Positions 2,010 through 25,923 of a DNA stretch of 26,044 bases are shown piece after piece (position 1 is the first letter of the stretch; every line of letters begins with the position of its first letter). The DNA lies in NCBI GenBank assembly GCA_040752415.1, contig JBFMGU010000151.1:1-26044 (forward strand), in the 5' to 3' direction. The notes under the pieces are model-generated. The model was not told the origin of the DNA, did not search any database, and was given only the letters and a program-made list of their open reading frames with translations. Origin of the DNA: Myxococcota bacterium (GTDB lineage Bacteria; Myxococcota; JACRCW01). A program made the position numbers and the translations under genes.

Positions 2010-2587
2010 GGCGTGTTGGTCAGCTCTTCCACGACGATGTTGTTGTTGGTGTAGACGCAGATGTCGGCGGCAATGCGCATGGCCTCCTCCGCCACCTTGC
2101 GCGCGTCCAGCTCGGTGTGCACCAGCAGCGCGCGGGCCGCGCTCAACGCATACGGCCCGCCCGAGCCGATGGCGTGCACCGCGGCGGGACCGTGGGGATG
2201 GCCGGCGGGGAGCAGCTCGTCGGGCTCCAGCACGTCGCCATTGCCGCTGATGAGCAGCAGCTTCTCCGCGTTGCCCACCAGCAGCATGGCCTCCAGCCGC
2301 TGGAACACCTTCTCCGTGCGCCAGTCCTTGGCCAGCTCCACCGCCGCGCGCACCAGCTGTCCGCCGTGATCCTTCAGCTTCGTTTCAAACCGCTCAAACA
2401 GCGCGAACGCGTCCGCCGTCGAGCCGGCGAATCCGGCCACCACCTTGCCGTCGCCCAGGCGGCGCACCTTGCGGGCTCCCTGCTTCACGCGGGTGGCGCC
2501 CAGGCTCACCTGCCCGTCGCCGGCAATCACGGTGCGGTTGCCCCGACGCAAAGCCAGGATGGTGGTGCCGTGCAGGGTCTCGGTCAT
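2006..2587 (-). CDS. hslV: ATP-dependent protease peptidase subunit HslV
   Basis: Motifs [39 protein letters not shown] and [11 protein letters not shown] at 2587 is preceded by an AAGGAGG SD. The stop overlaps the epmA start. Confidence 0.95.
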
Positions 2588-2715
2588 GGTGGGGCCTCCT
2601 TCGGAGATGCGCAGCATAACCGCGCGGGGTGGTTGTAGCGTCCTGCTTCCCGTCATGGTGTGACGCTGGCGGGGCCCAGGCGTTAGAACCCCAGGCCAGA
2701 ACCTCGAGGACGCCT

Positions 2716-5161: not shown

Positions 5162-5539
5162 GGATGAGGTCTCTCCGCTTCGCCCTCGTTGAAGTTGTCG
5201 CACCGTAAGGTCCCGCCAAGTGGAGGGTCAAATTTGAGACCGCACCTCACGTAATGGATGCGTCGCAAGCCGTGGAATCTGCGAGGGAATTACCTGTCGC
5301 CGACGCGTCGCCGGAAACACGTTGGAGAGACCCTCGCGGCCACGGCGGGGAAGGCGATCGGGCACGGTCTGGATCGGGAGAGCGCAGGAGCGGGCCGTGG
5401 TGGGCGGAAATCTCGCCCGACCTTCGATTTTGGCCCTTTCTCGCCCGCTAGCGCCCATTTGATAGCGAGTTGAAGGGGGATTTGAGGGGATTGAGGACAG
5501 CCAGGTGGGATGGGGCTGTTGACGTCGTGAAAAAGGCGT

Positions 5540-7660
<2,121 letters not shown>

Positions 7661-7728
7661 GGCCCACACTGGGTAGTGACGTGGGCTTGTGGAGGCAAGC
7701 CGGGGGTGCAGGCGCTATGTTCAGGCGC

Positions 7729-7998
7729 ATGTCCAAGCGCACCTCCAAGCCCAGTGCCCGCAACCCCCGCCCGTTCTTCTCCTACGTCGTCGGTGAGGAG
7801 CCGCCCCGCCGTGCCGCGGGCAAGCCGCCCAAGGAGAAGCCCAGGAAGGGCGGGGACAAGGTCACCACCATGGCGGTGGGCGAGGAGAGCGGCAGCGGCG
7901 GACGTCCCCCCGGTCCCACCACGCCGGCGGTGGGTGAGGAAGGCGTGGGCGACGTCCCCACGACGACGATCGCGAAAGGCGAGGAATCCGGCGGCTGA
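7729..7998 (+). CDS. Putative graspetide (plesiocin-type) RiPP precursor with three TTxxxxEE cores
   Basis: Cores TTMAVGEE (7864-7887), TTPAVGEE (7918-7941) and TTIAKGEE (7963-7986). Leader contains PFFSYVV. Start is ATG 7717 or 7729. Confidence 0.7.
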   Translation: MSKRTSKPSARNPRPFFSYVVGEEPPRRAAGKPPKEKPRKGGDKVTTMAVGEESGSGGRPPGPTTPAVGEEGVGDVPTTTIAKGEESGG

Positions 7999-7999
7999 A

Positions 8000-10159: not shown

Positions 10160-10322
10160 TCCAGCTCCCAAAGGCCCCACCAGGTCATGCCACGCGCCCC
10201 ACTGTATCTCGGGCCGGGGCTTCCCCAAGCATGGGCGTCAGCGCGCACGGTGGGGAGGGGCGGGGTGGGATCACGCTGGGCCGCGTCAGGACGCGGAGAT
10301 CTCGGCGGATGGAAAAAGGTTG

Positions 10323-10351
10323 TTGACGGCCGGGGCGGTCATCGGTATCAA
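10323..10351 (+). promoter_or_regulatory. Sigma70-like promoter of the tRNA gene
   Basis: TTGACG (10323-10328), 17-bp spacer, TATCAA (10346-10351), then a GC-rich stretch; the tRNA starts at 10365. Confidence 0.6.
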
Positions 10352-10364
10352 GCCGCTCCCCTGA

Positions 10365-10440
10365 CGCGGGGTGGAGCAGCTGGTAGCTCATCGGGCTCAT
10401 AACCCGAAGGCCGCAGGTTCAAGTCCTGCCCCCGCATCCA
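10365..10440 (+). tRNA. Initiator tRNA-fMet (CAT)
   Basis: 76-nt cloverleaf with C1:A72 mismatch, three G-C pairs in the anticodon stem (GGG-CTCATAA-CCC), GGTTCAAGTCC T-arm and encoded CCA. Confidence 0.97.
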
Positions 10441-10452
10441 AATAACGCAGCA

Positions 10453-10498
10453 AAAACGCCTAGTTGGGAGCAACTTCCTGGCTAGGCGTTTTCTCTTT
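10453..10498. terminator. Bidirectional intrinsic terminator between the tRNA and the convergent integrase
   Basis: AAAACGCCTAG (10453-10463) and CTAGGCGTTTT (10482-10492) are perfect inverted arms with further inner pairing and A/T tails. Confidence 0.75.
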
Positions 10499-11592
10499 CA
10501 TCCAACTTTGTCCATTTCTTGTCCAAGAGCCGGGGTGGTCTCCCGGCTGATGGCCGCCTCGAGCTGCACCACGGCCGCCCGCAGGTCCGCCTCTTCGACG
10601 ATGTTGTACCGGTCGAAGACGGCCCGCGTGCGGTGACCCGACATGCGCATCACTACCGACTCCTGCACGCCCCGACGACGGGCGTTGGTGACGAAGCTGC
10701 GGCGCAGGTCGTGGAACCAGATGCCGGAGAGGCCCGCCCCCACGCACGCCCGGTCAAAGGCACGCTTCATATCCGCCCACGGCTTCTTCGTCGCTGGGTT
10801 CACGAAGACGTACGGGCAGTCCTTGTGCACGGGAGTCTCCTCCAGTGCCGCCTTGGCCCGTGCGGTGAGGTAGATGATGCGAGCCTCGTCCGTCTTCGTC
10901 GCCTCCGCCGGCAGCCGGATCACGCCACGCTCAAGGTCCACGTAGGACCACTCAAGGTCCAAGACCTCCCGCTTGCGCATGCCGGTGTCGAAGGCGACGA
11001 CGAGGATGGGCTTCAGCTCCGCATCCGCCGCGGCGACGAGGCGCTTGAACTTCTCCTCGTCGAGGACGGACGTCCGCACATTGGAGCGGTGCAGGAGCTT
11101 TGCCCTGGCGATGGGGTTCGAGGGCAAGCTCCCGCAGGTAACGGCGTAGTTGAGGAAGCGCTTGAGCAACTCCACTTCCCGGTCCAGCGTGGCTGCGGAG
11201 GGGGCCGCGCCACGCATGGTCTTCTCGCTGAGCCGCTTGCCACGGTACTCGTCCACGTCCTTCACCGTGAGGGTGGCGGCCTTGCGGGGACCTAGCAGGC
11301 GGACCAAATGCGCCGCCCGCCCCACCTCGGTCTGGTGGGTGTCGTTGTCCCGCTCGGACACGGGTTTGTATGCCTCCCACGCTTCCAGCACCGTCAGCTC
11401 CGGGGCCTTGTGTCGCTCGAAGAACCGTCCCTCGAACGCCTCTGCCTTCACCTTCGCCACCAAGGCCATGGCCTGCTCCTTGGTGGGGATCTTGCGCTTC
11501 CTGAACCGCTCCACTTGCCCGTCGGGCATGGTCAGCCACTCGTCGACGAGCCAGTACGAGCGGCCGTTCACGACGTACTTCTTGACGCCCAT
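10498..11592 (-). CDS. Tyrosine recombinase / site-specific integrase
   Basis: Catalytic residues DTGMRKREV (R), TKTDEAR (K), HDLRR (H, R), SGHRT (H) and DRYN (Y). AGGAGG SD before ATG 11592. Confidence 0.95.
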   Translation of the reverse strand: MGVKKYVVNGRSYWLVDEWLTMPDGQVERFRKRKIPTKEQAMALVAKVKAEAFEGRFFERHKAPELTVLEAWEAYKPVSERDNDTHQTEVGRAAHLVRLLGPRKAATLTVKDVDEYRGKRLSEKTMRGAAPSAATLDREVELLKRFLNYAVTCGSLPSNPIARAKLLHRSNVRTSVLDEEKFKRLVAAADAELKPILVVAFDTGMRKREVLDLEWSYVDLERGVIRLPAEATKTDEARIIYLTARAKAALEETPVHKDCPYVFVNPATKKPWADMKRAFDRACVGAGLSGIWFHDLRRSFVTNARRRGVQESVVMRMSGHRTRAVFDRYNIVEEADLRAAVVQLEAAISRETTPALGQEMDKVG

Positions 11593-11594
11593 GT

Positions 11595-11996
11595 TCATCC
11601 TCCTTTCCGGGCAGACGGGCGTCGCGCGGAGGATAGCAGGGCGGGATCTGCGCGTCCGCCCTGAAGGACGGCATCCAGCTCGGCGACATGGAAGCGGAGC
11701 GCTCGACGGCCAACCCGGTGACACGGCACCGCGCCGCGGCGCACGCACTGGTACAGCGCCCGGGTGGTGGGCAGCCGCAGGTACCGTGCAGCCTCCTCGG
11801 CCGTGAGCCAGGGGCCAGTGGGTTCCGGCGGCTGCGCAGGAGGCACGATTGCTTGGTCCGTGCTCCCACCCTGCGGCACGGCAGGCGCATGCATCGGCGG
11901 AATGGGCGCTGAACTGGTGGTGCTCCCGTGCAATTCCTCTCGAACCACCTCCCGGATGATGTCCGCGAGGAACGCCCTGAGCGCGTTCTCAACCAT
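11595..11996 (-). CDS. Excisionase-like HTH (HTH_17-type) DNA-binding protein
   Basis: WLTAEEAARYLRL...ALYQCVRRGAVPCHRVGRRALRF; N-terminal IIREVVREEL helix; lies directly upstream of the integrase. Confidence 0.85.
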   Translation of the reverse strand: MVENALRAFLADIIREVVREELHGSTTSSAPIPPMHAPAVPQGGSTDQAIVPPAQPPEPTGPWLTAEEAARYLRLPTTRALYQCVRRGAVPCHRVGRRALRFHVAELDAVLQGGRADPALLSSARRPSARKGG

Positions 11997-12960
11997 CCTC
12001 GCCTCCCGCGACGAGGCCCGCCGATCCCTCTTGGACAAAGTCCAAGGGCGCGGAGGAGCCACCGTTCGAAGCCGTTGATCTGAAAGCGGATCCTGTCCGC
12101 GTGGCTGCCCTAGCCGCTGGGGCGGGCGGTAGGGGCAGGAGCTGCGGAAGGAGAGGGCGGCCAGCATGAATGCGCCGGCCGACATCTTGGAGAGATCGCA
12201 GCGGTGCCGTGAGGAGGTCGTCACCCCGAAGGAGGTCGAGGGTTCCCGCTCGCCAGCGGTCAGGTAGGAGCCCGTGGAGCGCCACCGCCAGGCTTTGCAG
12301 CCGCCGTTCGCTTGGCGCGAGGAGGAGCGGCGTCCATGGCGCGGCGAGGTCGTAGCAGGGGGCACCCTGGATGAGGATGTCGCGGATGGCAGCAGCCTTG
12401 GCGGCAAGGACGCGTCCGGTTTCTGTCCCGAGATCGACCTCCACGACCAGCCGAATGGGACCCGCGGGCACCACCACCTCCACGAGCGCGTCCGGGAGGA
12501 TGGTCGCGCGCCCAACTCCCAATGCGCGGCGGAGGTCCAGGTCTGCCCGGAAGAGCGTCACAGTGGCGCTGCCCATGCGCTTCACCGCCCGCAGGACTGC
12601 GACCCGCACCCAGTTGATCTCCAAGAGATGCCGCAAGTCTGCGTCCCGGGATGGCGGCGGACCCACGTGAAGGTCCGCCGTCTCGAACCCCGCGTCCAGG
12701 AGCGCATCCCCGCCACGCTTCGTGAGCACGTACACGTTCTCGCCGTTCAGCGCGGGCACTGTGACGTGGAGGAGCTTGGCGGCGAAGAGCGCCCGAAGCC
12801 TTCTGGACGCCACGCTCCGGTCTCCAAAGTAGACGCAGAGCTGGGAGGTGATGGCGGCGCGCATCCGTCCCACCGCGTACAGCAGCTCGAGGTCCCGCTC
12901 CGTGAGCACCACCCGCTTGCCTGCAGGCCGCTCTGCTCGGCTCTGTCGAAATGCGCCCAT
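11989..12960 (-). CDS. Replication-relaxation (Replic_Relax) family protein
   Basis: LTERDLELL wHTH start, then HLLEIN, ILPDAL and VEVDLGTE (PD-(D/E)xK-like core typical of the family). Adjacent to a coupling-type ATPase. Confidence 0.82.
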   Translation of the reverse strand: MGAFRQSRAERPAGKRVVLTERDLELLYAVGRMRAAITSQLCVYFGDRSVASRRLRALFAAKLLHVTVPALNGENVYVLTKRGGDALLDAGFETADLHVGPPPSRDADLRHLLEINWVRVAVLRAVKRMGSATVTLFRADLDLRRALGVGRATILPDALVEVVVPAGPIRLVVEVDLGTETGRVLAAKAAAIRDILIQGAPCYDLAAPWTPLLLAPSERRLQSLAVALHGLLPDRWRAGTLDLLRGDDLLTAPLRSLQDVGRRIHAGRPLLPQLLPLPPAPAARAATRTGSAFRSTASNGGSSAPLDFVQEGSAGLVAGGEDG

Positions 12961-12963
12961 GTC

Positions 12964-13287
12964 TCACACCAAGGGATTCCGCAGCGCATGGCCGCAGCCT
13001 GGACAGGGCATGAAGAGGAGCGCTTCACGCTCCCCGCAGATGGCGCAGCTCCACGCCCAGCCGGTCGAGACCGCCTTGCACGTCGGACATGAGAACCTCC
13101 CGTACTGCGGCACCTGGTGCGCGCATGCCGGGCACGTGAGTGTCGGGGCGAGTGCATGGCGGGCCTTTCGAAAGGCGGAAAGAGCGCCCAAGGACCATGC
13201 GCCGATCGCCACAAGCCCAACGACCCAGCCCATGGCGAGCGTCGCCACCGCGATGATCAACCACAGGAACAGCCTCAGCCGCTTCAT
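12964..13287 (-). CDS. Small membrane-anchored double zinc-ribbon protein
   Basis: Hydrophobic N-terminus followed by CPAC, CPTC, CAIC and CPGC. ATGA overlap with the upstream ATPase stop. Confidence 0.75.
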   Translation of the reverse strand: MKRLRLFLWLIIAVATLAMGWVVGLVAIGAWSLGALSAFRKARHALAPTLTCPACAHQVPQYGRFSCPTCKAVSTGWAWSCAICGEREALLFMPCPGCGHALRNPLV

Positions 13288-14930
13288 GGCATGCCTCCGC
13301 GTCGGCCTTTGGGGATGGGCGCCGCCGATGCGCCTGGAAGGACAGCCGTGCGCTGCCTGCGCGACGGACGGCCGGCGATCGGCTCCGACGCCACCGCCGG
13401 AGCGGGGTCGGTGCCAAGCTCCGCCTCCGCGGCTTCCAGACGAGCAAGCGCCTCGTTGCGCGGGATGCCGATGGCTCCGCGCTCCACCTCGTCACGCACT
13501 GCCATGGGAAGGTTGTCCCAGACCGGCGGGCTGAACTCAGGAGCGATGATGATCCGCGGGGAGAACGGCGCGGTACGGTCCGCGATGAGGAACGACCTCG
13601 TCGGGAGCTTGCCAAGCTCAGCAATCCGCAGCCGCAGTTCCTCGGCGTGTGAGAGGAACGGGCCGCCACGCCCGTCCGCCGCTCTTGCCACGCGTCCGGT
13701 GATGGGCACGTATTCTGCCCCGGCTTTGGCGTCGTCCGCGCCGGTGCGAAAGAGCAGGCGTATCCGGGCGTTTGCAGCAAGGAGTGAGGCGAGTGACGAT
13801 GGAAGCTGCGTCACGCTTTGGTGGCAACTCCAGAGCCCCAGACCGAAGCTGCGGCCAGTCGTGAGGACGCGGGAGATGAGCCTCTCGGTATACGGCGTCA
13901 ATGCTTCCTGCAACTCGTCAGCGAGGATCACGGTGCTAGTCTTGCGACCACCCGGCGCATCAAATCCCGCCCAGATCACGCGCGTGAGAAGCAAGGATGC
14001 GAGGAGACGCCGCGCTCCATCGGCGCCGAGCGGCGCGCCCGAAAAGTCCAGGATGGTGATGGCGCCGGGGAGAAACATGCGCCGAAAGTCCACGAGCCCC
14101 GGTCCGTGGAGAGCCGCCCGGATGGCGCGGACGCTGAGGAGAATGTCGGCGCGCGCAGCGAGACCGTCCAACGTGGCGGCGGCCTCCCGGTCCAGCCGGT
14201 GACGGATGAAGAGCCGAACGTCAGGGATCGTAGAACGCTCGCCACGTGCGCGGAGCGCGTTGCGGTCGAGGAGGAGGACCCTGAGTTCCTGAAGGGTGAG
14301 GTTTTGCTCGATGGCGAGGGCAAACAGAATGCGCGTCGCTGCCGCCTGTCGGATGCCGAGGCCGTCGGTGGCACCCTCGAAAACCTCCGCGAGAGCTTGG
14401 GCGTGTGTGAGCGGGTCGATACTTGCGTCCCCCTTCAAGAGCTGAAGCTCAACGACATGCGTTCCGCTGAACGGACGAATGACGATCACACGCTCCGTCT
14501 TCTTCCCGCGCAGCTTGTGTCCGCCAAGGACAGCCATCATGTGCGCTGCGAGATCGCCCTTCATGTCCGCGAAAATGCAACTCGGAGGCTCACAACTCAG
14601 AGGCTCACTGCGAAGGGCAAAGTCGATGACCTGTGCGCCTACTTGGGCGGACTCCTGCGTCTTCCCGCCTCCAGTGGCGCCGGATAACCAGACCATGAGG
14701 CCGTGCAAGTCCTTCAGGGGGAGGAGGTACGGGATCCCTTGCCCGTCTGCGCCGAGCGTCAGGTGCGGAGCGGTGGCGCGTTCCTTCATTGATGCGCGGA
14801 AGGCCCGTTCGTCCTCTTGGTCCGCGGCATGAAGCTTGTCGACTTCTGCTCGGGTGGCATCTTGAGCGAGCCTTCGCTCCCTCGCTGGGCGCCGCCCAGC
14901 AAGCCAAAGAAGAAGGTCACTCATCGGCAT
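13284..14930 (-). CDS. Type IV coupling protein-like (VirD4/TraD/HerA-FtsK superfamily) ATPase
   Basis: Walker A GATGGGKT, DMKGDL, Walker B ILADELQ and GRSFGLGLWSCHQSVTQL. Start is 14936, 14930 or 14924. Confidence 0.85.
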   Translation of the reverse strand: MPMSDLLLWLAGRRPARERRLAQDATRAEVDKLHAADQEDERAFRASMKERATAPHLTLGADGQGIPYLLPLKDLHGLMVWLSGATGGGKTQESAQVGAQVIDFALRSEPLSCEPPSCIFADMKGDLAAHMMAVLGGHKLRGKKTERVIVIRPFSGTHVVELQLLKGDASIDPLTHAQALAEVFEGATDGLGIRQAAATRILFALAIEQNLTLQELRVLLLDRNALRARGERSTIPDVRLFIRHRLDREAAATLDGLAARADILLSVRAIRAALHGPGLVDFRRMFLPGAITILDFSGAPLGADGARRLLASLLLTRVIWAGFDAPGGRKTSTVILADELQEALTPYTERLISRVLTTGRSFGLGLWSCHQSVTQLPSSLASLLAANARIRLLFRTGADDAKAGAEYVPITGRVARAADGRGGPFLSHAEELRLRIAELGKLPTRSFLIADRTAPFSPRIIIAPEFSPPVWDNLPMAVRDEVERGAIGIPRNEALARLEAAEAELGTDPAPAVASEPIAGRPSRRQRTAVLPGASAAPIPKGRRGGMP

Positions 14931-15297
14931 GGTCACGACCTATCGGGATGTTGGGAGTCACTCGCGTTCGAGCCTTGAGCGGCCGAACCGCCTTGGCTCC
15001 CGTGTGGCGGCGCCATGCCGCGCGCATCGCGAGGCCAAGGAGCCCCGCGTGACCGAGCACGACAACGACAAGGAGGGCAGGGTGAGTGCGGAGGTGAAGG
15101 GCGCTCCACCAACGCACCACGATAGGGACGGTGGCGTTCACCACCGCGTTCAAGGCCACGATGAGTAGTAGGAGCAAGAAACCGCCGCGAACCGCGCACC
15201 TCCCGAGGCGCGCGGCGGTCTCCGGCCCCGCCACCATGACCACAAACCCCAGGCCCACAACGCCGAGGATGAGGACGCCGTGGATCAGAATGACCAC
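14917..15297 (-). CDS. Small membrane protein (about 3 TM segments)
   Basis: Three hydrophobic stretches and a basic C-terminus; overlaps both neighbours. Confidence 0.72.
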   Translation of the reverse strand: MVILIHGVLILGVVGLGFVVMVAGPETAARLGRCAVRGGFLLLLLIVALNAVVNATVPIVVRWWSALHLRTHPALLVVVVLGHAGLLGLAMRAAWRRHTGAKAVRPLKARTRVTPNIPIGRDHADE

Positions 15298-16106
15298 GTG
15301 GCCACCACCTTGTCCTGCGTGTTGCTGGTGGCTCCGGACGGCCGACGTGGATTGATGAACTGACCCTTTGGGCAGAAGGGCTCCATCCGGACCAAGTCAG
15401 GCGCGGTGAACACAGCCTTCCATGTCCGCTCCAGCCGCTCCGCGCTCTGCGTGCTGCGTTCCGAGCTTGCGCGTTTCATGGTGGTGCGAGTCTCGGCGAG
15501 CCCGCAGAAGCGAACCGTGATGCCGGTGTTATCCAAGACGGTGGTCAGCTTGTCCTGCTTCTTCGCCTTCCCCAGGACCGCACGGGCGAGCCTGGGCTCC
15601 GTCGTTTCGAGCCCATCCGTGACGACGAACACGGCGCAGGGACGGCCACCGTCGCATCCGTCGGCACGCAGCACCTGAAGCGCCCGGCGGATGCCGAGGA
15701 CAATCGGTGAGGAGGTAGCCCGCCCTGCACCATCACAGCCATCGTGAATGCCACGAAGGAGTGCCGCTCGTTGCTCTTCGAGGTCACGCCGCGCCGACAT
15801 TGCTCGGGTGGCATGTGGCGCCTTGAAGACTCCCAGTTCCAAGGGCTCCATGTTGGTGAAGCTGTCCCCGGTACCAAGGAGCGTGAGCTGCGAGCCCTTC
15901 CGGAAGTCGGGCTTGGAGAGTGCCTCCTCGGTGAGCCCCACGGCGGCGGAACACTGCGTCTCCATGGGCATGGAGGTGGAGCGGTCATTCAGGATGGCGA
16001 CGTGGGCGGGCGGCGCGGCGGACGTCACGGCGTTCACGCGCCATGCGGCGAATCCCCCAACTCCGATGACGCCCGTCATCGCCATGATGAGGGTGCTGGC
16101 CTTCAT
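15285..16106 (-). CDS. Exported or membrane-anchored vWA-like protein
   Basis: N-terminal signal/TM MKASTLIMAMTGVIGVGGFAAW, MIDAS-like DRSTS and VVTDG. ATG 16106 overlaps the upstream TGA (ATGA). Confidence 0.72.
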   Translation of the reverse strand: MKASTLIMAMTGVIGVGGFAAWRVNAVTSAAPPAHVAILNDRSTSMPMETQCSAAVGLTEEALSKPDFRKGSQLTLLGTGDSFTNMEPLELGVFKAPHATRAMSARRDLEEQRAALLRGIHDGCDGAGRATSSPIVLGIRRALQVLRADGCDGGRPCAVFVVTDGLETTEPRLARAVLGKAKKQDKLTTVLDNTGITVRFCGLAETRTTMKRASSERSTQSAERLERTWKAVFTAPDLVRMEPFCPKGQFINPRRPSGATSNTQDKVVATWSF

Positions 16107-17119
16107 GACCGCACCCCCTTGAGGCGGGCGGCCACCTCCGCAACCCCCGCGTGGTATCCGTCGAGAACGGCGCGGGCGCAGGATTCCTCCAGGTCCGCCG
16201 CGTGGGCGGCGCGGAAGTTGCGGTCCTCCACGTACGCCAGGTGCTTGGCGTTCTCTTCGTCGATCTCCTTCACCCGGTCCTTGATGCGAGTGACCTCGTC
16301 GACGGCGGCGCCGTGGGTGGCGGACGCCTCGTCGGAGATGTCCTTGCGGCGCGACCATTCCTGCACCGCGGACGCGTGGTCGCGGGCGATGAACTCGAGC
16401 GCGATGATGGCGCCAAGTTCCAAGAGCGTGAGCCCCACGCCGATGATGACGTCACCGGCGTCACGCGCGGCGCCGAGGCGGATGACGGCAGTCGAAGCAG
16501 CCAGGATGAATCCGGCAATGAGCCCGCCGCGGGATGCCGACGTCCGCTCGCCCTTCGGACCGCAGGTCATGATGGACCAGGTCACGAAGATGCCGGCCAT
16601 GAACGCGAAGATGAAGGAGATGGCCCAACGCGTGGGCTCGTCCTCCATCGGCAGGAAGTCATGCAACGCCGGCGTGAAGCCCGCCGTGAGGATACCGGTC
16701 GCCGGATTCGTGAGGAGTACGTTGGGTTCCGGGCGCTCGTCTCCGAAGCGGACCTGGGCAGCGCGGCCGTTCATGTCCCGCGCCCGGGCTTGAGCGAAGC
16801 GGCCGTGGTCGAGCAGCTCCTCCTTTTCAGCGTTGCGCTCCCGGTACAGACGTTCACGCATAGCGTCCTCGGGATGGCGGTCAGGGTCGTACGGGATGGC
16901 GACGTTCTCCCGGGCGCTCGCACGGGCGTGGTGAACGAGGTTCTCCTCGTCCTGCTTCACCGCGACGGGACTGCCGCGGCGGATGCCTTGCTCGTATCCG
17001 TGGTCGTACAAGCCCTTCATGATGCGCACCGTCGTGGGTTCACTGCCGTCGTCACGCCGGGAGATGAGCTGGGACGTGGTGCCGGCCAAGACTCCGTTCC
17101 GCTTCAGGTCGTTGGTCAT
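16103..17119 (-). CDS. Membrane protein with 3-4 TM segments flanked by predicted coiled coils
   Basis: AGGAGG SD, charged helical N- and C-terminal regions and a central hydrophobic block. First gene of the operon. Confidence 0.8.
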   Translation of the reverse strand: MTNDLKRNGVLAGTTSQLISRRDDGSEPTTVRIMKGLYDHGYEQGIRRGSPVAVKQDEENLVHHARASARENVAIPYDPDRHPEDAMRERLYRERNAEKEELLDHGRFAQARARDMNGRAAQVRFGDERPEPNVLLTNPATGILTAGFTPALHDFLPMEDEPTRWAISFIFAFMAGIFVTWSIMTCGPKGERTSASRGGLIAGFILAASTAVIRLGAARDAGDVIIGVGLTLLELGAIIALEFIARDHASAVQEWSRRKDISDEASATHGAAVDEVTRIKDRVKEIDEENAKHLAYVEDRNFRAAHAADLEESCARAVLDGYHAGVAEVAARLKGVRS

Positions 17120-17242
17120 GGTGCCTCCTGGTGGGCGCGTGTTTCAGCGCTCGTTTCCTGGTGTGCTTGCCTGGGGCGGCGGCGCGGCGGCATCTTGAAA
17201 GAACATCCGGCGCATAAGCACCGGAAAGGTCTGGGGATTTTG

Positions 17243-18679
17243 GTGGCGTCGCCAGTTTCGCTTGTCCTGCAATTGCCCGACGCGGATGCTCGGACCGCGC
17301 CGATTTTTCAGGTCAAGGACGGTCGGCGGGAGCTGTGGCGTCGGGTGCCGACGTATCTCTTCGACGTCGTGCTTGTGCTGCGCGTGCGTGGCGCCCTCGG
17401 CAGCACCGGGCCAGGGGTCCCGCTCTGGGAGTTAAGGCGGGCACTACCTGGACGCCCCAGCGACGACAGCCTCCTCGAATACCTCTCTCGGCTGCTCGAG
17501 TACGACTTGGAGTTGGTCGTTCACCAAAGCGGTGATGATACTGCGCTTACGTGCAATCTCCCCGCGGGTGTTTCGGATCTTACGGTGCCGGAGCGTCTCG
17601 CTTGTGAAGCGTATCTTGAGCGGCGTCGACGACAACTTGCGCGGCGCGGCCGGCGACTGGCGACGGCGGCATCGCCGTCAATAGTCCAGTCCATTATTCT
17701 CAAGGTGAACGCGGCGTTGGCGGACGAGGACATCATACTCGCAGCCAAGTACCTCTCCGAGAGCGCGCTTCAGCCGCAGAGTATCGTCGAATCCGTAACA
17801 AGTTCTGTGCGTCCACGCCTCCTGGGCGAGGTGTACTTGCACCGCGCACGCGTCGCGATGCTGAAGGGGGATCCCGTCGACGCGATAGCCAACGCGAAGA
17901 GAGCCCAACGTCAGCTCATGCGGACAAACGACTGGCGGCGCATCGCGGAGGTCCACGTCGTTTGGTGTGCCGCGGCGAGAATCGCGGGCGACCTCGTTGA
18001 AGCGGCAACTCACGGTGCGCAGGCCCGTCGGCTTGCTGAAGAGCATGGCGCCAACGACGCCGCATGGGCACCCGTTTGGACCTCGACCCTTGCGCCGTTC
18101 TTGGCGCTGGGAACGTCGTCAGAGGCCCGAAGAGTGGTTGAGCGGAGCGTCGACGTCGCAGCGACTGTTGGTCACGTATTTGGCGAGGCGGAAGCAAGGC
18201 TCCGCCTAGCTCAGCTGAACCTCATGGACATCGGTCCCGATGCGGCGCTGACAGACCTCGCCGCTGCGGAGCAGTTGATTCGCCGGTTGCCTCCAAGCCC
18301 CTGGCTTCTGGGATGGTCGAATCGGCTCCGCGTCGAGCTTGCCATCGTCACTGGTGATCGGCGCGAGGCGAGTCCGGCCGAGTTTCTGACGTCTTGGAGG
18401 ACGTATGCAAATCAGGGCAACCGGTTTCAACAGAAGCTTCTCCTGCGTGTCCTGCCGGATCTCCGCACGGCTGGATTCTCAGATTTCCTTCATGACAAAG
18501 CCTTCGTGCACCAGGTGGCCGCACTGCACGAGAAGGAGCTTGGGGTCTTTGGATCGCACTGCCCTCGTGGTCCTCACAAGGACGTGCTGGAGGCTTCCGC
18601 GTGCATTGTGAGGCACGCCGCCGCTCAAAAGCTCGACGCCACGGTACTTCTGCATAAGAAAACGCGGCTCAAGTTGTGA
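17243..18679 (+). CDS. Putative regulator: wHTH-like N-terminus plus TPR-like repeats
   Basis: VPLWELRRALPGRPSDDSLLEYLSRL resembles an OmpR/SARP wHTH. Ala/Leu helical repeats follow (LGEVYLHRARVAMLKGD; GEAEARLRLAQLNL). The 16151-17240 part of the long ORF is treated as an antisense shadow. Start uncertain (17195, 17240 or 17243). Confidence 0.65.
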   Translation: MASPVSLVLQLPDADARTAPIFQVKDGRRELWRRVPTYLFDVVLVLRVRGALGSTGPGVPLWELRRALPGRPSDDSLLEYLSRLLEYDLELVVHQSGDDTALTCNLPAGVSDLTVPERLACEAYLERRRRQLARRGRRLATAASPSIVQSIILKVNAALADEDIILAAKYLSESALQPQSIVESVTSSVRPRLLGEVYLHRARVAMLKGDPVDAIANAKRAQRQLMRTNDWRRIAEVHVVWCAAARIAGDLVEAATHGAQARRLAEEHGANDAAWAPVWTSTLAPFLALGTSSEARRVVERSVDVAATVGHVFGEAEARLRLAQLNLMDIGPDAALTDLAAAEQLIRRLPPSPWLLGWSNRLRVELAIVTGDRREASPAEFLTSWRTYANQGNRFQQKLLLRVLPDLRTAGFSDFLHDKAFVHQVAALHEKELGVFGSHCPRGPHKDVLEASACIVRHAAAQKLDATVLLHKKTRLKL

Positions 18680-18687
18680 GCCGCGAG

Positions 18688-18951
18688 CTATTCCTCGGCG
18701 TTGGGCGCGTGCAAGAGCCCTAGTTTCTGTCGGGCTTCACGAAGGAGCACAGTGCGTCGCCGCCACCAGCGCACACGCGGGTTGAGCGACAGTTTGTATT
18801 TGGCGGACTTCCGCCGATCGACTTTCGTGCAGGTTCTACAGGTCGTCGCATGCCAGCTGAACAACGCGTCGATCTCGTCCTGGGTCAGCAGGTCGCCGAC
18901 GCCACTCCGTATGAGGTGCGTCATCTCTTTGCAGGTCAAGGCAGTTGTCAC
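18688..18951 (-). CDS. Small protein with a zf-HC2 (zinc anti-sigma-like) motif
   Basis: CKEMTHLI...LLTQDEIDALFSWHATTCRTC matches C...HxxxCxxC; basic C-terminal tail. Confidence 0.55.
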   Translation of the reverse strand: MTTALTCKEMTHLIRSGVGDLLTQDEIDALFSWHATTCRTCTKVDRRKSAKYKLSLNPRVRWWRRRTVLLREARQKLGLLHAPNAEE

Positions 18952-19430: not shown

Positions 19431-19667
19431 GTGACCGACTCACCGCTCAATTACCTGCTGTTCCGCGCGATCGACGGAGTTGGCTGGCTGTTGCGGATGG
19501 GGTTCGCGGTGTTGACCCTGCCAATCGCCTGGTTGGCCAACCGACTTACCAAGTCGCCTCTTCCGTCAGCCCCGTCGGCGACCCCGGCCGCCCCCCAGCC
19601 CACGGAAACGTTCAGAGTCCCCGACTCTGGAATGAACGCTCTACTCGAGCGTCCCAAGCGCCATTAG
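19431..19667 (+). CDS. Small probable membrane protein with a C-terminal PDSGMxxLL motif
   Basis: Hydrophobic segment GVGWLLRMGFAVLTLPIAWLA, Pro-rich linker and FRVPDSGMNALLE. Start uncertain (GTG 19401 or 19431). Confidence 0.6.
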   Translation: MTDSPLNYLLFRAIDGVGWLLRMGFAVLTLPIAWLANRLTKSPLPSAPSATPAAPQPTETFRVPDSGMNALLERPKRH

Positions 19668-19762: not shown

Positions 19763-20521
19763 ATGTCGTCGATCACCCTGAAAGAAGCAACACAGTCCCT
19801 CGTCGCACAAGGAGCTTTGACGCAAGCAACGGCCACTGCGCTCGGTGCCGATTCGCGTAGCGTCGGTGTTGCTGATGTGTCGATGCTGTACGACGACCCA
19901 GTCTTCTCTTGCTTTCTGATCGATGAGTCAGGTTCGATGTCCCCCTACAAGCAGAGTGTCATCGAGGGACAAGCGGCAATGGTCGAGTCGCTCCGTGCGA
20001 GCATGAAGTGCAAGAAGGGGTCGTTGTTCGTCGCCCAGTATCTCTTTTCGAGCACGGTTCGCGCGCTGCACCCGTTCTCGGCACTGCAGCCCAAAGGACC
20101 CGACAAGGTATTGGTGCTTGACGACTCGAAATATGCACCGAGTGGAAATACAGCGCTTTACAAGTCCCTCTACTATCTCCTTCAGGACATGGCAGCAAAC
20201 CTTGCAAGCGCGGCACAAAACCAGGTCAAAGCCAGCCTTACCATCGGGGTCATCACGGATGGGGAGGACACCGAAAAGGGCATCGACCCGGCCGAAATCA
20301 AGAAAGTGATCAGTGAACTCCGCGGACAGAAGTTCTTGCGCAAGTCTGTGGTAATTGGCTTGACGCACTCGAGGTTCACGCAGGGCATGCTCGACGAGCT
20401 GCGGGAACGTCTCGGATTTGACGAGGCTATTTCGCTTACCCAGTCTGATCCAAAGGCGGTCCGACACGCCTTTGTTCTTGCGTCCCAATCGGCGGTGTCA
20501 GGCCAGGGACCACGCCCCTGA
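19763..20521 (+). CDS. vWA-domain protein (TerY/YegL-like)
   Basis: MIDAS residues in LIDESGSM, GNTALY and ITDGED; GAGGGAG SD. Confidence 0.88.
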   Translation: MSSITLKEATQSLVAQGALTQATATALGADSRSVGVADVSMLYDDPVFSCFLIDESGSMSPYKQSVIEGQAAMVESLRASMKCKKGSLFVAQYLFSSTVRALHPFSALQPKGPDKVLVLDDSKYAPSGNTALYKSLYYLLQDMAANLASAAQNQVKASLTIGVITDGEDTEKGIDPAEIKKVISELRGQKFLRKSVVIGLTHSRFTQGMLDELRERLGFDEAISLTQSDPKAVRHAFVLASQSAVSGQGPRP

Positions 20522-20543
20522 CGAACGCGGCAGGGAGCCACTG

Positions 20544-21797
20544 ATGGACATCATTGTCGAACAGAAAACGTATACCTTGTCGGCGCCAATTGCTCAGGGC
20601 GGTGAGGGCGAGATCTTTGTCCTAACGCCCACCTCCGTCGCCAAAGTCTACAAACCCAATGTTCTTGACCAAACACGTCAGCTCAAGGTGTTGGCCTTGT
20701 GCAATCTGTACCATGGTTTCATTGCACGCTTTGGGGAGATGGCCTGTGCATTTCCGCGAACGCCAGCGCACGTTGGCGGCTTCACCGTCACGGACATTGC
20801 AGGTTTTGCAATGAAATACTTCAATGGCTGCGGCACACTCGCGGACCACGGATACGACCTCCGTGCGGCCGCCTTCCGTGCCGTCGGCGCAGGCGCGCCG
20901 ATCAACGACGTAGATGCGGTCAAGGTGGTCTATGACGCGGCCCAGCTGGTGGAGCGGCTTCACTCCAGTCGAGTAATCCTAGGCGATATCAACCCGAACA
21001 ACTTCCTGTACGACGCTGCTTCGCGGTCTGCCATTGTGATCGACATTGACGCCGCACAGGTCGGGTCATTCTCCTGTAAGTCGTTCTCCCCAGAGTACTT
21101 GGACCCGCTTGTTCAAAGCCAAGGGCAGACACTGAGCGGCGGTTATTCCTTCAGCGCAGAAAGCGATTGGTTTTCCTTCGCTTGTGTAATGTTTGAATTC
21201 TTGGTCGGAGCCAATCCATTCTTTTCGAGATCAACGCCGCCGTTCAGTATCGAGGAGAATATCGAAGCTCGCCGGAGCCTTATTCGTACAATCGTTGAGG
21301 GTACGAAGACCATCAACGGAGTAAGTCTTGGCAACTCACCAGTAGACCTAAACATCATTGCCAGACTCCAGAGTCTCCGCAACGCATTTCCGGAACTGTT
21401 CGACTACTTCGTCGCGACCTTTGTTCGTGATGAGCGCCACAGCCTCATGTCGACTCTCACGCGCGATGACCCTCGCCACCCAGCGTATGTCTTCTTTTCT
21501 ACTAGCGGGTTTGACGCCGTGCTGGCCGATCTGGTCGCGCGGAGAAAGAAGGTGACTGCGGCGGCGAAAGCTCACCCACTGACAATTCCAGATTCCGGGA
21601 TGGCAACCTTATTGAGTACCGCGCGCCCGATGCCACACACAACGTTCCCCGACTCAGGGTTCGCAAGCATTCTCGGCATTGTCGGGCAGGGCCGCTCTGG
21701 CGACGTGGGGAGGCCGACTCCTCAGCCGAAGATGGATCCTCCCGCGTTGTCGATGTTCCTCGGTAGTCACGCGATTGGCGTCAACTCGCTCCCGTAG
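20544..21797 (+). CDS. Ser/Thr protein kinase (YegI-like) with a repeat-bearing C-terminal tail
   Basis: Motifs IAQGGEGEIF, VAKVYK, LGDINPNN, IDIDAA, PEY and SDWFSF. ATG 20544 follows AGGGAG. Confidence 0.9.
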   Translation: MDIIVEQKTYTLSAPIAQGGEGEIFVLTPTSVAKVYKPNVLDQTRQLKVLALCNLYHGFIARFGEMACAFPRTPAHVGGFTVTDIAGFAMKYFNGCGTLADHGYDLRAAAFRAVGAGAPINDVDAVKVVYDAAQLVERLHSSRVILGDINPNNFLYDAASRSAIVIDIDAAQVGSFSCKSFSPEYLDPLVQSQGQTLSGGYSFSAESDWFSFACVMFEFLVGANPFFSRSTPPFSIEENIEARRSLIRTIVEGTKTINGVSLGNSPVDLNIIARLQSLRNAFPELFDYFVATFVRDERHSLMSTLTRDDPRHPAYVFFSTSGFDAVLADLVARRKKVTAAAKAHPLTIPDSGMATLLSTARPMPHTTFPDSGFASILGIVGQGRSGDVGRPTPQPKMDPPALSMFLGSHAIGVNSLP

Positions 21798-21806
21798 GCA
21801 GCAACC

Positions 21807-22769
21807 ATGTCACCGCGCTTCTTGAGTACGCCGTTCGCTCATCACTTTGTTCAGCTCTCCTCATCAGAGCGAACTTGTGAGCTTCCCTTCGCGGTCGGTG
21901 GCGCCACACAGCAGGGCACCGCACACGTGGAGGATAACCAGAACAACCAAGATGCTCTTATTGTACGGCTCTTGCCGAACACAATCATCGGCGTGGTCGG
22001 TGATGGGTGTGCTTCAACGCACGAGAGCCTGCGCGACACGATTTCCAACAATGAGGTCGGAGCGAGGATTCTTGGGCACGCTTGCGCTCGGGCCACTGCT
22101 AACCTTGTGGTGCAAGGACTTTCACCAGACGACGCGGCGTTCTGGGGCTTGGTTGAGGACTCGCTGCTTGAGACCAGCCGCGCTCTCCTCGATGTTCTTG
22201 TTGGTCCACAAGAAGAGCAGCGCGCCACGGCAGCCCTGGATTTCCTCACAACGACCCTGCTGGTTTTCGTGGTTACCCCAGTATGTTACTCAGTATACGG
22301 CTGCGGTGATGGGGTTCTGGCGGTCAACGGAAAGATCAGAGTTCTCCCGACCCACGGGGCGTACTTGTCGTCACTGCTGCTCGGAGCAGGAGCTACCCAT
22401 GAGAAAGGTGAGGCCAGACCACGCGCGTTGGCGTGCCTTGCAAAAGGCGCTACGCACTCGCTGAACAGTCTCTTCTTGGCGACGGACGGATTCGCGGATC
22501 TAGTGAATGCTGCTGAGGGCATACTCTTGCCAATGCTTGGCGGCTTGGCGGCACACCCCCGCGAGGGCTTTGACTTTCTTCTTAAGGAGTTTCGCCAGCG
22601 GATTCTCTCAGACTCAAGGATGGAAAAGCATCCAGCGCTCTCCAATTGGCCACGTGACGACGCCTCTTTCCTCCTGCTGCGACGGGTTGCCTCGGCTGGG
22701 GCAGCAACGTTGGCGACGGAATCAGTGCAACAAATGGGTGACTCCAGTGATAAGCCTCACAGCAACTGA
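21807..22769 (+). CDS. PP2C-like protein phosphatase (YegK / PP2C_2 type)
   Basis: Motifs GTAH...NQDA, VGDGC, TTLL, GDG, LATDGF and DDAS. Confidence 0.88.
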   Translation: MSPRFLSTPFAHHFVQLSSSERTCELPFAVGGATQQGTAHVEDNQNNQDALIVRLLPNTIIGVVGDGCASTHESLRDTISNNEVGARILGHACARATANLVVQGLSPDDAAFWGLVEDSLLETSRALLDVLVGPQEEQRATAALDFLTTTLLVFVVTPVCYSVYGCGDGVLAVNGKIRVLPTHGAYLSSLLLGAGATHEKGEARPRALACLAKGATHSLNSLFLATDGFADLVNAAEGILLPMLGGLAAHPREGFDFLLKEFRQRILSDSRMEKHPALSNWPRDDASFLLLRRVASAGAATLATESVQQMGDSSDKPHSN

Positions 22770-24252
22770 CGTTTCGCGTGCTGGGGGATTTCTCGCCGCG
22801 CTGTCCGCAAAGTCCCTGGATTATCTAGGCCGCATCCATCGCCTCACTTGCGATTCGCAGGTAGAGCGCCGGATTCTTCGCCACGTCGTGCACACAGATC
22901 CTCATCTTGATGAATACTGTGCGGAGGCACTTTTCTCGAGCAGCATGAACGCTGCAACGAGGGAATCAATTGATTTTATTGAGGCATCGATCTACTCCCA
23001 AACCAGCGACTTGGGGGCTCAGAAGCTCTGGCCAGACGCCGCCGTGTTCGGGATTGGCGCATCGATAGCATGCGGCGCAACGCCAGTACTCCTGTTTGAC
23101 GAGCACGCGGCCGGAGGAGGGCGTTACTCTCCCTCCTGCACGTCGGCTGTCGCGGATTTCTTGGTGCGACCGAACGGGGCCAGCGTGCCGCCGAGCTTCG
23201 CTCAAGTGTTTCGTGAGGTGAGCGCGATCGACTCGTTTGGTAGGGCGCATCAACAGCACATAGGGAACATAATCAAGACGATGCATAACGCCAGGTTTCT
23301 ACTGAAGAAGGGAATTCAGCCGAAGGACGACATTCGCGACACGCTGACCCCGTACTGGAAACGCGCGGTGATCCAAGCCTGCCTCGCAGCGGTGGTTTGG
23401 GCATTAGAGGAGCACCTCGACATTGTTCGCGACTCCACAAGCGCAAGTGCAGCAACCAAAGCATCAATGCGACGCTATTTTCAAGCATCGCTGCACAGGG
23501 GTGCACGCGGATTTGACGAAGCAATGCACCGAATTCAATCGTTGTACGGCGACCAAGCAAAGGTATTTCAGCAGGCTTCGTTGCCCGCACCAGGCGGCGG
23601 TGCGCAGCGGGACGCATCAGGCAATGAGATTCCTCAACTCATGGTTCTTGGGCGCGTGTGCCGCGCTCTGAATGAGGCTTGGGGGCCGATGGTGGCCGAC
23701 GCCGTCATGATGCACTTTTGGGAGGTTGAGTTGCAGCGGGAACTGAACTTTCGCGCATTTGCGGCGGCGCTGGACAGCCTGCCAGCCGGAGCCGATCAAC
23801 CCGGGCATACTGCGAGTGAACTCGGTCGCGTTCGGAAGGAGGTCATCAAGGGCGTTCGCTGGCAGGAGCAGTCACGCCATCGAAGCTCGAGCAAGGTTGA
23901 GCACACAGTATGGGTCCTGAGCGTCACGCCACGTTCAGGTGTTTTCAACGCTCACCAGGTGGCACTCAATTTCATAAATACCAAGAACAATGGCCTCGGG
24001 CTTGTGCTTCTTGAGGATGGCGTTTTGGGTACAAAGACCGTCTTCAGGGCGCAGTCGATTCCCGAGCCGATTTGGCGGAGCGTCATGGATGAATTGCTTG
24101 GCCGAGAACCTGGCTGCTGGTACGATGCCTCATCCGGAAAAGGAGTTTCTGCACCATTCCTGAGCAATGGAAACAAGGCTCACCAGTACGTTCCACGGAG
24201 TGGCATAGATTGCCAAGCATTGGCCAGCGTCGTAGCGCGCGCATCGGCCTAA
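22738..24252 (+). CDS. MYG1/DHH-like putative metal-dependent phosphoesterase or nuclease
   Basis: HTDPHLDEYCA resembles the MYG1 HxxxxHxDExxA motif, and GIG...FDEH resembles DVGG...FDHH. GTG start at 22738 or 22747 overlaps the PP2C stop. Confidence 0.6.
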   Translation: MTPVISLTATDVSRAGGFLAALSAKSLDYLGRIHRLTCDSQVERRILRHVVHTDPHLDEYCAEALFSSSMNAATRESIDFIEASIYSQTSDLGAQKLWPDAAVFGIGASIACGATPVLLFDEHAAGGGRYSPSCTSAVADFLVRPNGASVPPSFAQVFREVSAIDSFGRAHQQHIGNIIKTMHNARFLLKKGIQPKDDIRDTLTPYWKRAVIQACLAAVVWALEEHLDIVRDSTSASAATKASMRRYFQASLHRGARGFDEAMHRIQSLYGDQAKVFQQASLPAPGGGAQRDASGNEIPQLMVLGRVCRALNEAWGPMVADAVMMHFWEVELQRELNFRAFAAALDSLPAGADQPGHTASELGRVRKEVIKGVRWQEQSRHRSSSKVEHTVWVLSVTPRSGVFNAHQVALNFINTKNNGLGLVLLEDGVLGTKTVFRAQSIPEPIWRSVMDELLGREPGCWYDASSGKGVSAPFLSNGNKAHQYVPRSGIDCQALASVVARASA

Positions 24253-24600: not shown

Positions 24601-24645
24601 TTGACGAAGGCCACTCAGGTTGTTAGTGTGATGGCAACACTAACA
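24601..24645 (+). promoter_or_regulatory. Sigma70-like promoter overlapping a 9-bp inverted repeat, antisense to the serine recombinase
   Basis: TTGACG (24601-24606), 17 bp, then TAGTGT (24624-24629) with an extended -10 TG. Inverted repeat TGTTAGTGT (24621-24629) / ACACTAACA (24637-24645). Confidence 0.45.
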
Positions 24646-25923
24646 CATGACACCGTTTCCGTCAATACCCGGCGACGACAGCAGTTCCTCGGTGCTGATT
24701 CGAACATCCTTCATCACGCTGCACCATGAAAGAAGCTGGGGTGAAAGACCCTGGCTTTTTTCGTTGCCCACCAGCGCGAGTCTCGGGTTCGCGTCCCCGC
24801 CAAACCCGCTCCCATCCCCGCCACCGCCTTTGCCGCGGGTGCCTAGGACTTCCGACGCTCCGTTGAGCGGATTCTCGTCGGTCTCGGGCGGGTTCGCGTC
24901 CCTGGGCGCCGGTTGTCCACTCCACGCTCCGCGCAGCCGCCCGAACGGGTACCGCAAGCGAACCGTCACTTGGCGCTGCTGCACGGTGATGCCTTCACAG
25001 AGGTCGGCGAGCAGCTCTCGCTGCCTGTCTCGGTCCCCACTGTCAAAGGTCTCAGCGGCACTGGCAGCGGCCTCAAGGGCGGTCATGAGGTTGGCGTCTG
25101 CTTCAGTTTCCGTGCCCGAGGGGTCTGAGCTCCGATGCTGGAGATCCTCAAGCTCACCGAGCGCGCGGATGCGGGCCGACACGTACTCATCCTCGGACAA
25201 GTGACCCCTGGCGCACAGCGTGGTCAGGCGCGTCAGCTCCTGCTCCTTGGAGGCAACCTGTTTGCGGAGGTTCTCGGTTGTTGCGCGAATCCTGGTCAGC
25301 CGCTCTTCCCGCTCAGCTTCCAGCCAACGACGGGTCCAGGCAACAAGCCACGCCGGCACCGTGAGATCCCGCAGACATGCCGCGACCTGCGCGTGCACCT
25401 CCCGCTCGGTCACATACCGCTCCGGACAGGTGATGCTGCCCACTTTTCGCCGACCGCAGCGATAGTAGGTGTACTTGGTGCCATACCGGTTCACGTGGTC
25501 CTCGCCGACCACCGCGCGGCCACAGGCACCACAGCGCAGGAGGCCGGCATACGTGAAGGCGTGCTTGGAGGGACGTGGCGCGTCGACGCGGCCAAGGAGT
25601 ACTTGGATGCGCTCGAATTCAGCCTTCGTCACCATGGCCTCGTGCTCGCCCACGTACACCTCGCCACCATGCTTGATGAGCCCGGCATAGAAGGGCTTTT
25701 GAAGCATGGCGTAGAGGTACGAAACGCTGATGGGCCCTGCCGGGTGGCGACGTGACCCACGTGTGCGCAGGTTCAGCTCGTCGCGTGCGGCGAAATAGAG
25801 GTCGTGCACGGAGACCGTACCCGTAAGGTACCGCTTGAAGAGTTCCCGCACGAGGTCGAAACGCTCGGGGTCCCTGATGACCTTCCCAGCACCGCGGCCA
25901 CGGCTCGTGGGTGGCGTCTTCAG
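24640..25923 (-). pseudogene. Large serine recombinase, C-terminal part (recombinase domain, Zn ribbon, coiled coil), cut off from its catalytic N-terminus
   Basis: Motifs VIRDPERFDLVRELF, KPFYAG, GEHEAMVTKAEFERIQ, YAGLLRCGACG and YYRC, then a coiled coil. In-frame TAA at 25945-25947 upstream, and no resolvase domain in the window. Confidence 0.75.

Follow-up and report, generated by a model that had tools for sequence, protein, structure and literature searches.

Triads of a von Willebrand factor A (vWA) protein, a PP2C phosphatase and a Ser/Thr kinase act in bacterial immunity, and the accessible parts of the literature searched name no substrate or output for an anti-phage TerY-P system. 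Is there a locus in which such a triad is joined to an enzyme that it might control? We have analysed a stretch of 26,044 nt (hereafter the window; positions 1-26,044 of contig JBFMGU010000151.1, assembly GCA_040752415.1) from the 11-Mb genome of a Myxococcota bacterium (JACRCW01), in which genes for a vWA protein, a kinase and a PP2C phosphatase are followed by a fourth gene, here called G4. We have found that these genes form one mobile cassette which is inherited as a block. We class it as a variant of the TerY-P type whose constant partner, G4, belongs to an undescribed family with a predicted DHH fold. Tentatively, we read G4 as the output of the cassette. With the triad tied to one fixed partner enzyme, both the substrate of the kinase and the direction of control become directly testable.

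Four genes inherited as one block

A preliminary description of this DNA, made from the sequence alone, had pictured four co-oriented genes in lower-GC DNA inside an island, and our measurements agree with it. All four lie on the plus strand (Table 1), with gaps of exactly 22 and 9 nt followed by a 23-nt overlap between PP2C and G4. The GC content of the four open reading frames (ORFs) is 0.563–0.578 against 0.689 for the genome, and the element that carries them is anchored at a tRNA. At third codon positions the GC content (GC3) is 0.61–0.67, with G4 taken on its long frame from 22507, compared with 0.95 for uvrB. The likely start of G4 is the GTG at 22747, which matches the called protein P0001 and falls in the same first column in 34 of 36 aligned homologues; the 23-nt overlap that results is also present at loci L001, L012 and L024. 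Each of the four genes has a single copy in the genome.

Table 1 Features of the window discussed in the text, with their coordinates.
Feature	Position	Strand	Details
tRNA-Met	10365-10440	+	likely insertion site of the element
Tyrosine integrase	10498-11748	-	Phage_integrase E 4.4e-20; starts 58 nt downstream of tRNA-Met
Replication-relaxation protein	11989-12960	-	Replic_Relax E 1.2e-7
78-aa ORF	19431-19667	+	hydrophobic stretch, Pro-rich linker, terminal PDSG[MF]xx[LI]L
vWA	19763-20521	+	252 aa; Pfam VWA E 3.9e-7
Kinase	20544-21797	+	417 aa; Pfam Pkinase PF00069 E 1e-7
Kinase motifs	20544-21797	+	G-loop GGEG, K34, D148, N153, D167-x-D169; residue counts from 20 homologues
Two PDSG[MF]xx[LI]L motifs, kinase linker	21588-21674	+	copies at 21588 and 21648
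PP2C	21807-22769	+	320 aa; PP2C_2 PF13672 E 7.9e-14
G4	22747-24252	+	501 aa; GTG start; predicted DHH + DHHA1 fold
G4 site	22747-24252	+	H49/H53/D55, E79, G102, D118-E119-H120, D162, N474-G475-x-x-x-H479
Large serine recombinase, C-terminal part	24640-25851	-	Pfam Recombinase + Zn_ribbon_recom; near contig end

That the fourth gene goes together with the triad had been proposed as well, and searches from the G4 side and from the kinase side have both returned the same fixed order. A pattern scan of GTDB for G4 gave 17 loci, of which 12 show the full vWA-kinase-PP2C-G4 arrangement, two are truncated where their contig starts and agree with it as far as they reach, and three hold G4 alone. A profile search added one further genome with the full order, which brings the complete cassettes to 13 of 18 G4 loci. 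The named GTDB loci, including the two cut ones, come from eight phyla. In the search that started from the kinase, 80 metagenome loci were kept, and 8 of them fall into the clade of the window kinase; PP2C and G4 follow in 7/7 of those with downstream DNA, and the eighth ends inside the kinase. Since L026 and L027 duplicate L007, five of these loci are new. No G4 was found in the fetched DNA of the 72 more distant kinase loci, many of which are short and only 21 of which have both vWA and PP2C. Overall, the vWA-kinase-PP2C order is kept in all 19 distinct complete cassettes, the window included, and PP2C and G4 overlap or lie no more than 11 nt apart in 18/18 loci.

The four gene trees agree with one another (Spearman correlation of distances 0.58–0.79, Mantel p 0.0005, 18 loci). 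These correlated trees show that the genes travel as a block; they do not show physical contact between the proteins. In addition, two fusions are known here from protein sequence: P0024 joins PP2C to G4 (two contigs), and P0030 joins a kinase of the clade to G4 (one contig). The kinase part of P0030 has lost the catalytic Lys, the catalytic Asp and the DxD, while its G4 motifs are intact. A dead kinase beside an intact G4, together with the invariance of the G4 site, suggests that G4 is the part that does the work. Fusions of G4 with a length of 899–2565 aa were also looked for and none was found, which is weak evidence.

Premature stops occur in vWA (L028) and in the kinase (L011 and L031); PP2C and G4 showed none. 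This pattern fits an enzyme that is harmless without its kinase, and the tolerance of kinase loss suggests that G4 is off by default.

The order of the genes had been regarded as a rearrangement of the usual triad. The kinase does precede the phosphatase at this locus, where E. coli has vWA-PP2C-kinase, but this is not special, as relatives of the canonical triad may also begin with the kinase (kinase-vWA-PP2C in six three-gene loci of more distant relatives). Gene order was therefore rejected as a novelty of the system.

A predicted DHH fold with a rebuilt site

The G4 family comprises 113 cluster representatives, the window protein among them, with about 100 full-length proteins. It has no match in Pfam, NCBIfam or PADLOC; the silence of PADLOC is weak evidence, because E. 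coli YegL and PphC are also unmatched there. A profile search of the PDB sequences with G4 likewise returned nothing (best E 0.19). A confident structure model was obtained (pLDDT, its predicted score in the local distance difference test, 92; predicted template modelling score, pTM, 0.91). With this model, Foldseek ranked RecJ first at a sub-threshold E of 2.5e-3, and VIA-align gave PggH a Z of 11.3 (root-mean-square deviation 5.9, 264 aligned), pAp phosphatase 10.7 and RecJ 10.1. The VIA-align rows with Z of at least 8 (ranks 1–12) are ten DHH enzymes and two chains of the CMG complex, and DHH-fold chains make up most of the first 29 rows. The N-terminal part of G4 reaches template modelling (TM) scores of 0.55–0.58 with models of DHH, NrnA and MYG1 proteins, and the C-terminal part matches C-Ala/DHHA1. 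On the basis of this model we assign G4 a predicted DHH/DHHA1 fold.

The fourth gene had been labelled MYG1/DHH-like. The predicted fold upholds the DHH part of this label, while membership in MYG1 falls away. No match to PF03690 appeared at E 0.1 with the window protein, with 36 aligned members or with 37 mostly distant members. Against a four-sequence MYG1-like profile the motifs line up, with hhalign E values of 0.02–0.27 that are not significant; a viral scan for further MYG1-like sequences gave one fragment. In the accessible part of PMC6582341 the catalytic DHH motif is the criterion for MYG1, and G4 has DEH instead. For these reasons G4 was rejected as a member of MYG1.

Conservation was counted in 108 proteins of at least 400 aa, taken from 141 found, which share 16–44% identity with the window protein. 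Residues D55, E79, G102, D118, E119, H120, D162, K205 and N474 are kept in 107–108 of them. Motif I reads H53-x-D55, with a MYG1-like H-x-D spacing; its second Asp is present in 107/108, and its first position is His in 95 or Ser in 12. The adjoining E56 of the HLDE stretch is kept in only 92/108, against 107–108 for D55, E119 and D162. In motif II, Gly102 (108/108) occupies the column aligned to the Asp of V-I-D-I-G-G. Motif III is D118-E119-H120 (107, 108 and 107 of 108), that is, DEH and not DHH, and the D162 of motif IV (108/108) is aligned to the Asp of FDSRG in MYG1-like proteins. Close to the C-terminus, N474-G475-N476-x-x-H479 is kept in 107, 97, 77 and 94 of 108, respectively, and would by its position be equivalent to GGGH. 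H49 and H53 are both lost in 12 of the 108, a distant clade. In the distant clade P0117-P0136, Arg and Ser stand in their places (R-x-x-P-S-L-D-N), and D55, DEH and D162 are kept.

With the DHH/DHHA1 enzymes (RecJ, NrnA, PggH, pAp phosphatase) and MYG1, G4 has in common the predicted two-domain fold, the second Asp of motif I, the Asp and the last His of motif III and the Asp of motif IV, and its conserved C-terminal His apparently stands where DHHA1 has GGGH. It differs from them by DEH, by Gly at motif II, by NGNxxH for GGGH, by a large helical insertion and by its length of 500 aa. According to the accessible parts of PMC8268124 and PMC4081065, the canonical DHH ligands are the DxD of motif I, the Asp of motif II, the middle His of DHH and the Asp of motif IV. 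Judging from the alignment, the rebuilt site of G4 probably still binds metal, and Glu119 may replace the carboxylate lost at Gly102. G4 probably works like a DHH enzyme, and if it is active, the DEH-site family would widen what is known of how DHH phosphoesterases work chemically.

The altered ligands may also be taken to mean that G4 is inactive and serves as a DHH-fold scaffold, which organises the vWA protein, the kinase and the phosphatase on nucleic acid. Cdc45 is such a catalytically inactive DHH-fold scaffold, and chains of the Cdc45 type are among the fold matches of G4. The changes of the motif II Asp to Gly and of the middle His to Glu, each in 108/108, as well as the double loss of H49 and H53 in the distant clade, are in line with this idea. 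However, inactive scaffolds rarely keep an Asp/Glu/His cluster that is near-invariant at 16–44% identity to the window protein, and we hold a scaffold role to be very improbable.

The kinase and its tail

The kinase model (pLDDT 83.7) has PknB as its top Foldseek match (E 6.3e-9). Among the motif residues, K34 is kept in 19/20 homologues and D148, N153 and D167 in 20/20, with DxD in place of DFG. In a tree of 40 rows (quick search, midpoint root, L011 omitted as broken), a branch with SH-aLRT 99 separates the 17 rows of its clade from the YegI-like kinases. Scans of the kinase against PADLOC, NCBIfam and Pfam gave generic kinase matches only. No match to the PADLOC STK_OB model was found at E 0.1, which is a weak test as E. 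coli YegI also misses it at E 0.001.

The preliminary description had seen in the kinase tail short motif repeats and no folded effector domain. The tail of about 75 residues contains no Cys, its pLDDT falls below 50 at 351–368 and 383–395, and it forms short helices at 373–382 and 400–408; the kinase is without a folded C-terminal domain, OB-fold or zinc ribbon. This much of the description stands, but the repeats are lineage-specific. The number of PDSG motifs varies, with one copy in L001, L002, L004, L024 and L028 and none of that form in most other loci, so the repeats were rejected as a conserved feature. The conserved element is instead the final helix, DPxx[LF]xxF, in which D398 and F405 are kept in 20/20 homologues and which may be a docking element.

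The motif PDSG[MF]xx[LI]L is found three times in the six frames of the whole genome, and all copies are at this locus: two in the kinase tail and one in the 78-aa ORF ahead of vWA. The GC3 of this ORF is 0.77. It has no Pfam match and no significant homologue among the loci fetched up to L114, and neither of its two start choices is present in the protein collection. It is possibly a local fifth component, a decoy or docking mini-protein, or a remnant.

The bare tail bears on another explanation, in which the kinase itself is the toxic output that phosphorylates host proteins and arrests the infected cell. G4 would then act upstream as a nucleic-acid sensor in trans, replacing the OB-fold or zinc ribbon, and would bind or trim the nucleic acid of the invader. 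As far as the accessible part of PMC11090510 goes, the described TerY-P kinases carry an OB-fold or zinc ribbon for which nucleic-acid binding is proposed, and the window kinase has no such domain. The fusion P0030 puts G4 exactly at the C-terminal position of the kinase, and a toxic kinase would agree with the nonsense codons in kinase and vWA genes and with the tolerance of an intact G4 that stands alone. On the other hand, the kinase of P0030 is catalytically dead next to an intact G4 and therefore cannot be the killer there, and the invariant acidic and His residues of G4 suggest catalysis over binding alone. We consider a toxic kinase unlikely, but it is a serious rival to the reading that we favour.

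The vWA protein and the phosphatase

The metal ion-dependent adhesion site (MIDAS) of the vWA protein (D54-x-S56-x-S58, T130, D166) is intact, and it is invariant in 16/16 homologues. Compared with an 18-sequence YegL-like profile, hhalign gives 97.2% at E 3e-11, which indicates end-to-end homology to YegL. A sister group of four loci lies nearer still to the vWA profile (hhalign E 5.8e-19). The same four sister loci form a neighbouring kinase group, and one of them has an NAD synthase neighbour. In PP2C, D49, D66, D227 and D284 are invariant in 15/15 homologues.

In L003, L005, L006, L010, L011, L014, L031 and L118, the vWA protein carries an extra N-terminal domain of about 130–170 aa. A weak DUF4145 match was obtained for it in one locus, and it is possibly an RNase-like or sensor module.

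Relation to described TerY-P systems

Previous work, in the accessible part of PMC11090510, presents TerY-P triads either as phosphorylation switches joined to restriction systems or as anti-phage systems in their own right, with an OB-fold kinase. It also describes them as accessories of DNA-processing and restriction systems, and as lying near WXG100 and FtsK genes. The accessible part of 10.1101/303594 reports that autophosphorylation of YegI is reversed by PphC. Like TerY-P (E. coli yegL-pphC/yegK-yegI), the cassette has a MIDAS vWA, a PP2C and a Ser/Thr kinase in one operon, and the WXG100/FtsK setting recurs at one of our loci, L007. It differs in the vWA-kinase-PP2C order, the separate kinase clade, the missing zinc ribbon or OB-fold and the fixed presence of G4.

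The stand-alone anti-phage TerY-P (vWA + PP2C + STK-OB; Gao et al. 2020, as given in the accessible part of PMC11090510) shares with the cassette its enzyme classes and a defence-island setting, and is set apart by the OB-fold that the window kinase does not have and by the additional G4. CoCoNuT type II/III-A, as far as the same source describes it, resembles the cassette in that a TerY-P switch is tied to separate predicted nucleases. However, the triad there is a dispensable add-on to cores of McrBC, helicase and HEPN, whereas the triad clade of the window was not seen without G4 and its block contains no McrBC or helicase.

In agreement with the preliminary description, we have found no described system that matches the locus, either in PADLOC 2023 or in the literature searched. 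Anantharaman et al. 2012 reportedly surveys TerY-P neighbourhoods and could already mention the four-gene architecture. This architecture was not found in the accessible parts of the papers searched (PMC7159879, PMC12839542, PMC9503650, PMC13223576, PMC10542128 and PMC7824862), a set which does not include the primary TerY-P papers.

Spread and neighbourhoods of the cassette

The cassette is rare and patchy. It was found in 1 of 151 genomes in the genus of L002 (Bradyrhizobium) and in 2 of the 201 from the order to which L001 belongs, but in none of 400 further genomes from the phylum of the host. Searches of IMG/VR, PLSDB and INPHARED did not return G4, and IMG/VR did not return vWA. At least nine loci have integrases, recombinases, transposases or coupling proteins at their flanks.

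Leaving the window aside, there are 21 distinct cassette loci, whole or truncated, and at 12 of them a neighbour matches a PADLOC profile; this is a raw count without a background set, from a scan that covered part of the neighbours (56, most from a list of 128, plus two further sets). At L007, BREX PglX and BrxL are directly upstream of the cassette, with Mrr and PD-T7-5 also near. DISARM DrmA/B is beside L004 and HerA-DUF4297 beside L014, and at L118 a type III restriction subunit occurs together with SoFic, OLD and SLATT. Regulators stand directly upstream in several loci, namely CARF-AAA-HTH activators (L005, L010), a WYL protein (L031) and, in five Bacteroidota loci, sigma-54 activators.

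Some other neighbours are worth recording. Downstream of the cassette in L007 (9565-17386) lie FtsK, WXG100, an ADP-ribosyltransferase-like gene, Mrr and PD-T7-5. In L002 (Bradyrhizobium), G4 is followed on the same strand by a gene with an FHA domain, a phosphothreonine reader (9502-10098). L015 has a second vWA-PP2C-kinase triad, NERD, radical-SAM and a HerA-like ATPase directly after the cassette (5521-13485), and its vWA gene is partly duplicated upstream. In L012, radical-SAM, coiled-coil and ClpB-like AAA genes come directly before the cassette (1450-4794).

The surroundings also bear on the question whether the cassette may be a stress-signalling or metabolic switch, in which G4 would hydrolyse, under phospho-control, a small nucleotide (pAp, pGpG, nanoRNA or a cyclic dinucleotide). 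The two best-ranked VIA-align matches of G4 are a pGpG phosphodiesterase and a pAp phosphatase, vWA is nearest to the sister group in which one locus lies beside NAD synthase, and three Desulfovibrionaceae keep a stand-alone G4 at a fixed place near purA. But the rare and patchy spread, the low GC, the integrative element and the BREX, DISARM, restriction, WYL and CARF neighbours fit defence cargo better, and the full cassette has no conserved metabolic neighbour gene. A switch of this kind seems to us quite unlikely.

A possible mechanism and the points against it

The reading that we favour, though tentatively, is that G4 is a predicted metal-dependent, DHH-fold nuclease or phosphodiesterase gated by phosphorylation, and the output of a mobile defence module that would act against phage or stress. 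The MIDAS of vWA would bind a trigger, either an acidic peptide or a protein of the phage, and thereby set the kinase free. The kinase would dock by its conserved C-terminal helix and phosphorylate G4, which PP2C would hold off in uninfected cells. Active G4 might then cut single-stranded RNA or DNA at the ends, or cleave short oligonucleotides, within the cleft that its two domains form. A narrower version is rather doubtful: an undescribed four-gene anti-phage system in which the vWA-triggered kinase and PP2C directly gate the DEH-site DHH-fold nuclease, with the PDSG mini-protein as a local decoy that tunes the switch. If this version is true, a DHH enzyme is used as an immune effector and is switched by reversible protein phosphorylation.

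Several observations weigh against G4 as the gated output. The structural matches of G4 are distant (TM about 0.33, 7–13% identity) and do not fix its substrate, and two canonical metal ligands of DHH enzymes, the motif II Asp and the middle His, are altered. The only near-invariant Ser, S130, follows DEH and aligns with a Thr of stand-alone MYG1-like proteins, and it is therefore not a specific phospho-site candidate. Some of the defence-neighbour matches are generic ATPases or kinases, with L009, L012, L015, L029 and L030 as the weaker or generic cases, and the sigma-54 cases represent a single Bacteroidota lineage. The three nonsense codons are just as compatible with a toxic kinase, and they may have arisen in assembly. 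Finally, G4 stands alone in three Desulfovibrionaceae (L013, L016, L017; 8001-9512) with all 16 checked residues intact; together with the dead-kinase fusion, this means that G4 can be kept without an active partner kinase.

The stand-alone copies form one lineage, which is nested among those of the cassette and groups with L015 and L029 at 100/98 support. All three lie at the same place on the chromosome, near purA, a gene name read from the translation. In these genomes no vWA, kinase or PP2C of the clade was found but only distant kinases, in a search with two positive controls. The stand-alone G4 of Desulfovibrionaceae looks domesticated.

The host element

The element in the window begins at the tRNA-Met with the tyrosine integrase, an HTH_17 protein and Replic_Relax, and extends to the serine recombinase that lies close to where the contig stops. 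Neither the window nor the genome yielded an att-like repeat of the 3' end of the tRNA, with the contig stopping before the end of the element, and scans for promoters and terminators gave chance level only.

A co-oriented block on the minus strand (13284-17119) encodes a Walker A ATPase, which is likely a coupling protein, a small zinc-finger protein and a coiled-coil membrane protein. Within it, the product of 15288-16106 has vWA-like DxSxS and TDG motifs and no Pfam match. Modules resembling this block flank the cassette in L010 (12570-16053) and L012 (14964-17530). On the plus strand, a long ORF (16151-18679) of uncertain true start shows weak TPR/MalT-like similarity, and converges on an 87-aa ORF on the minus strand (18688-18951). 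The latter has no Pfam match and contains an HxxxCxxC motif, which presumably recalls zinc anti-sigma factors.

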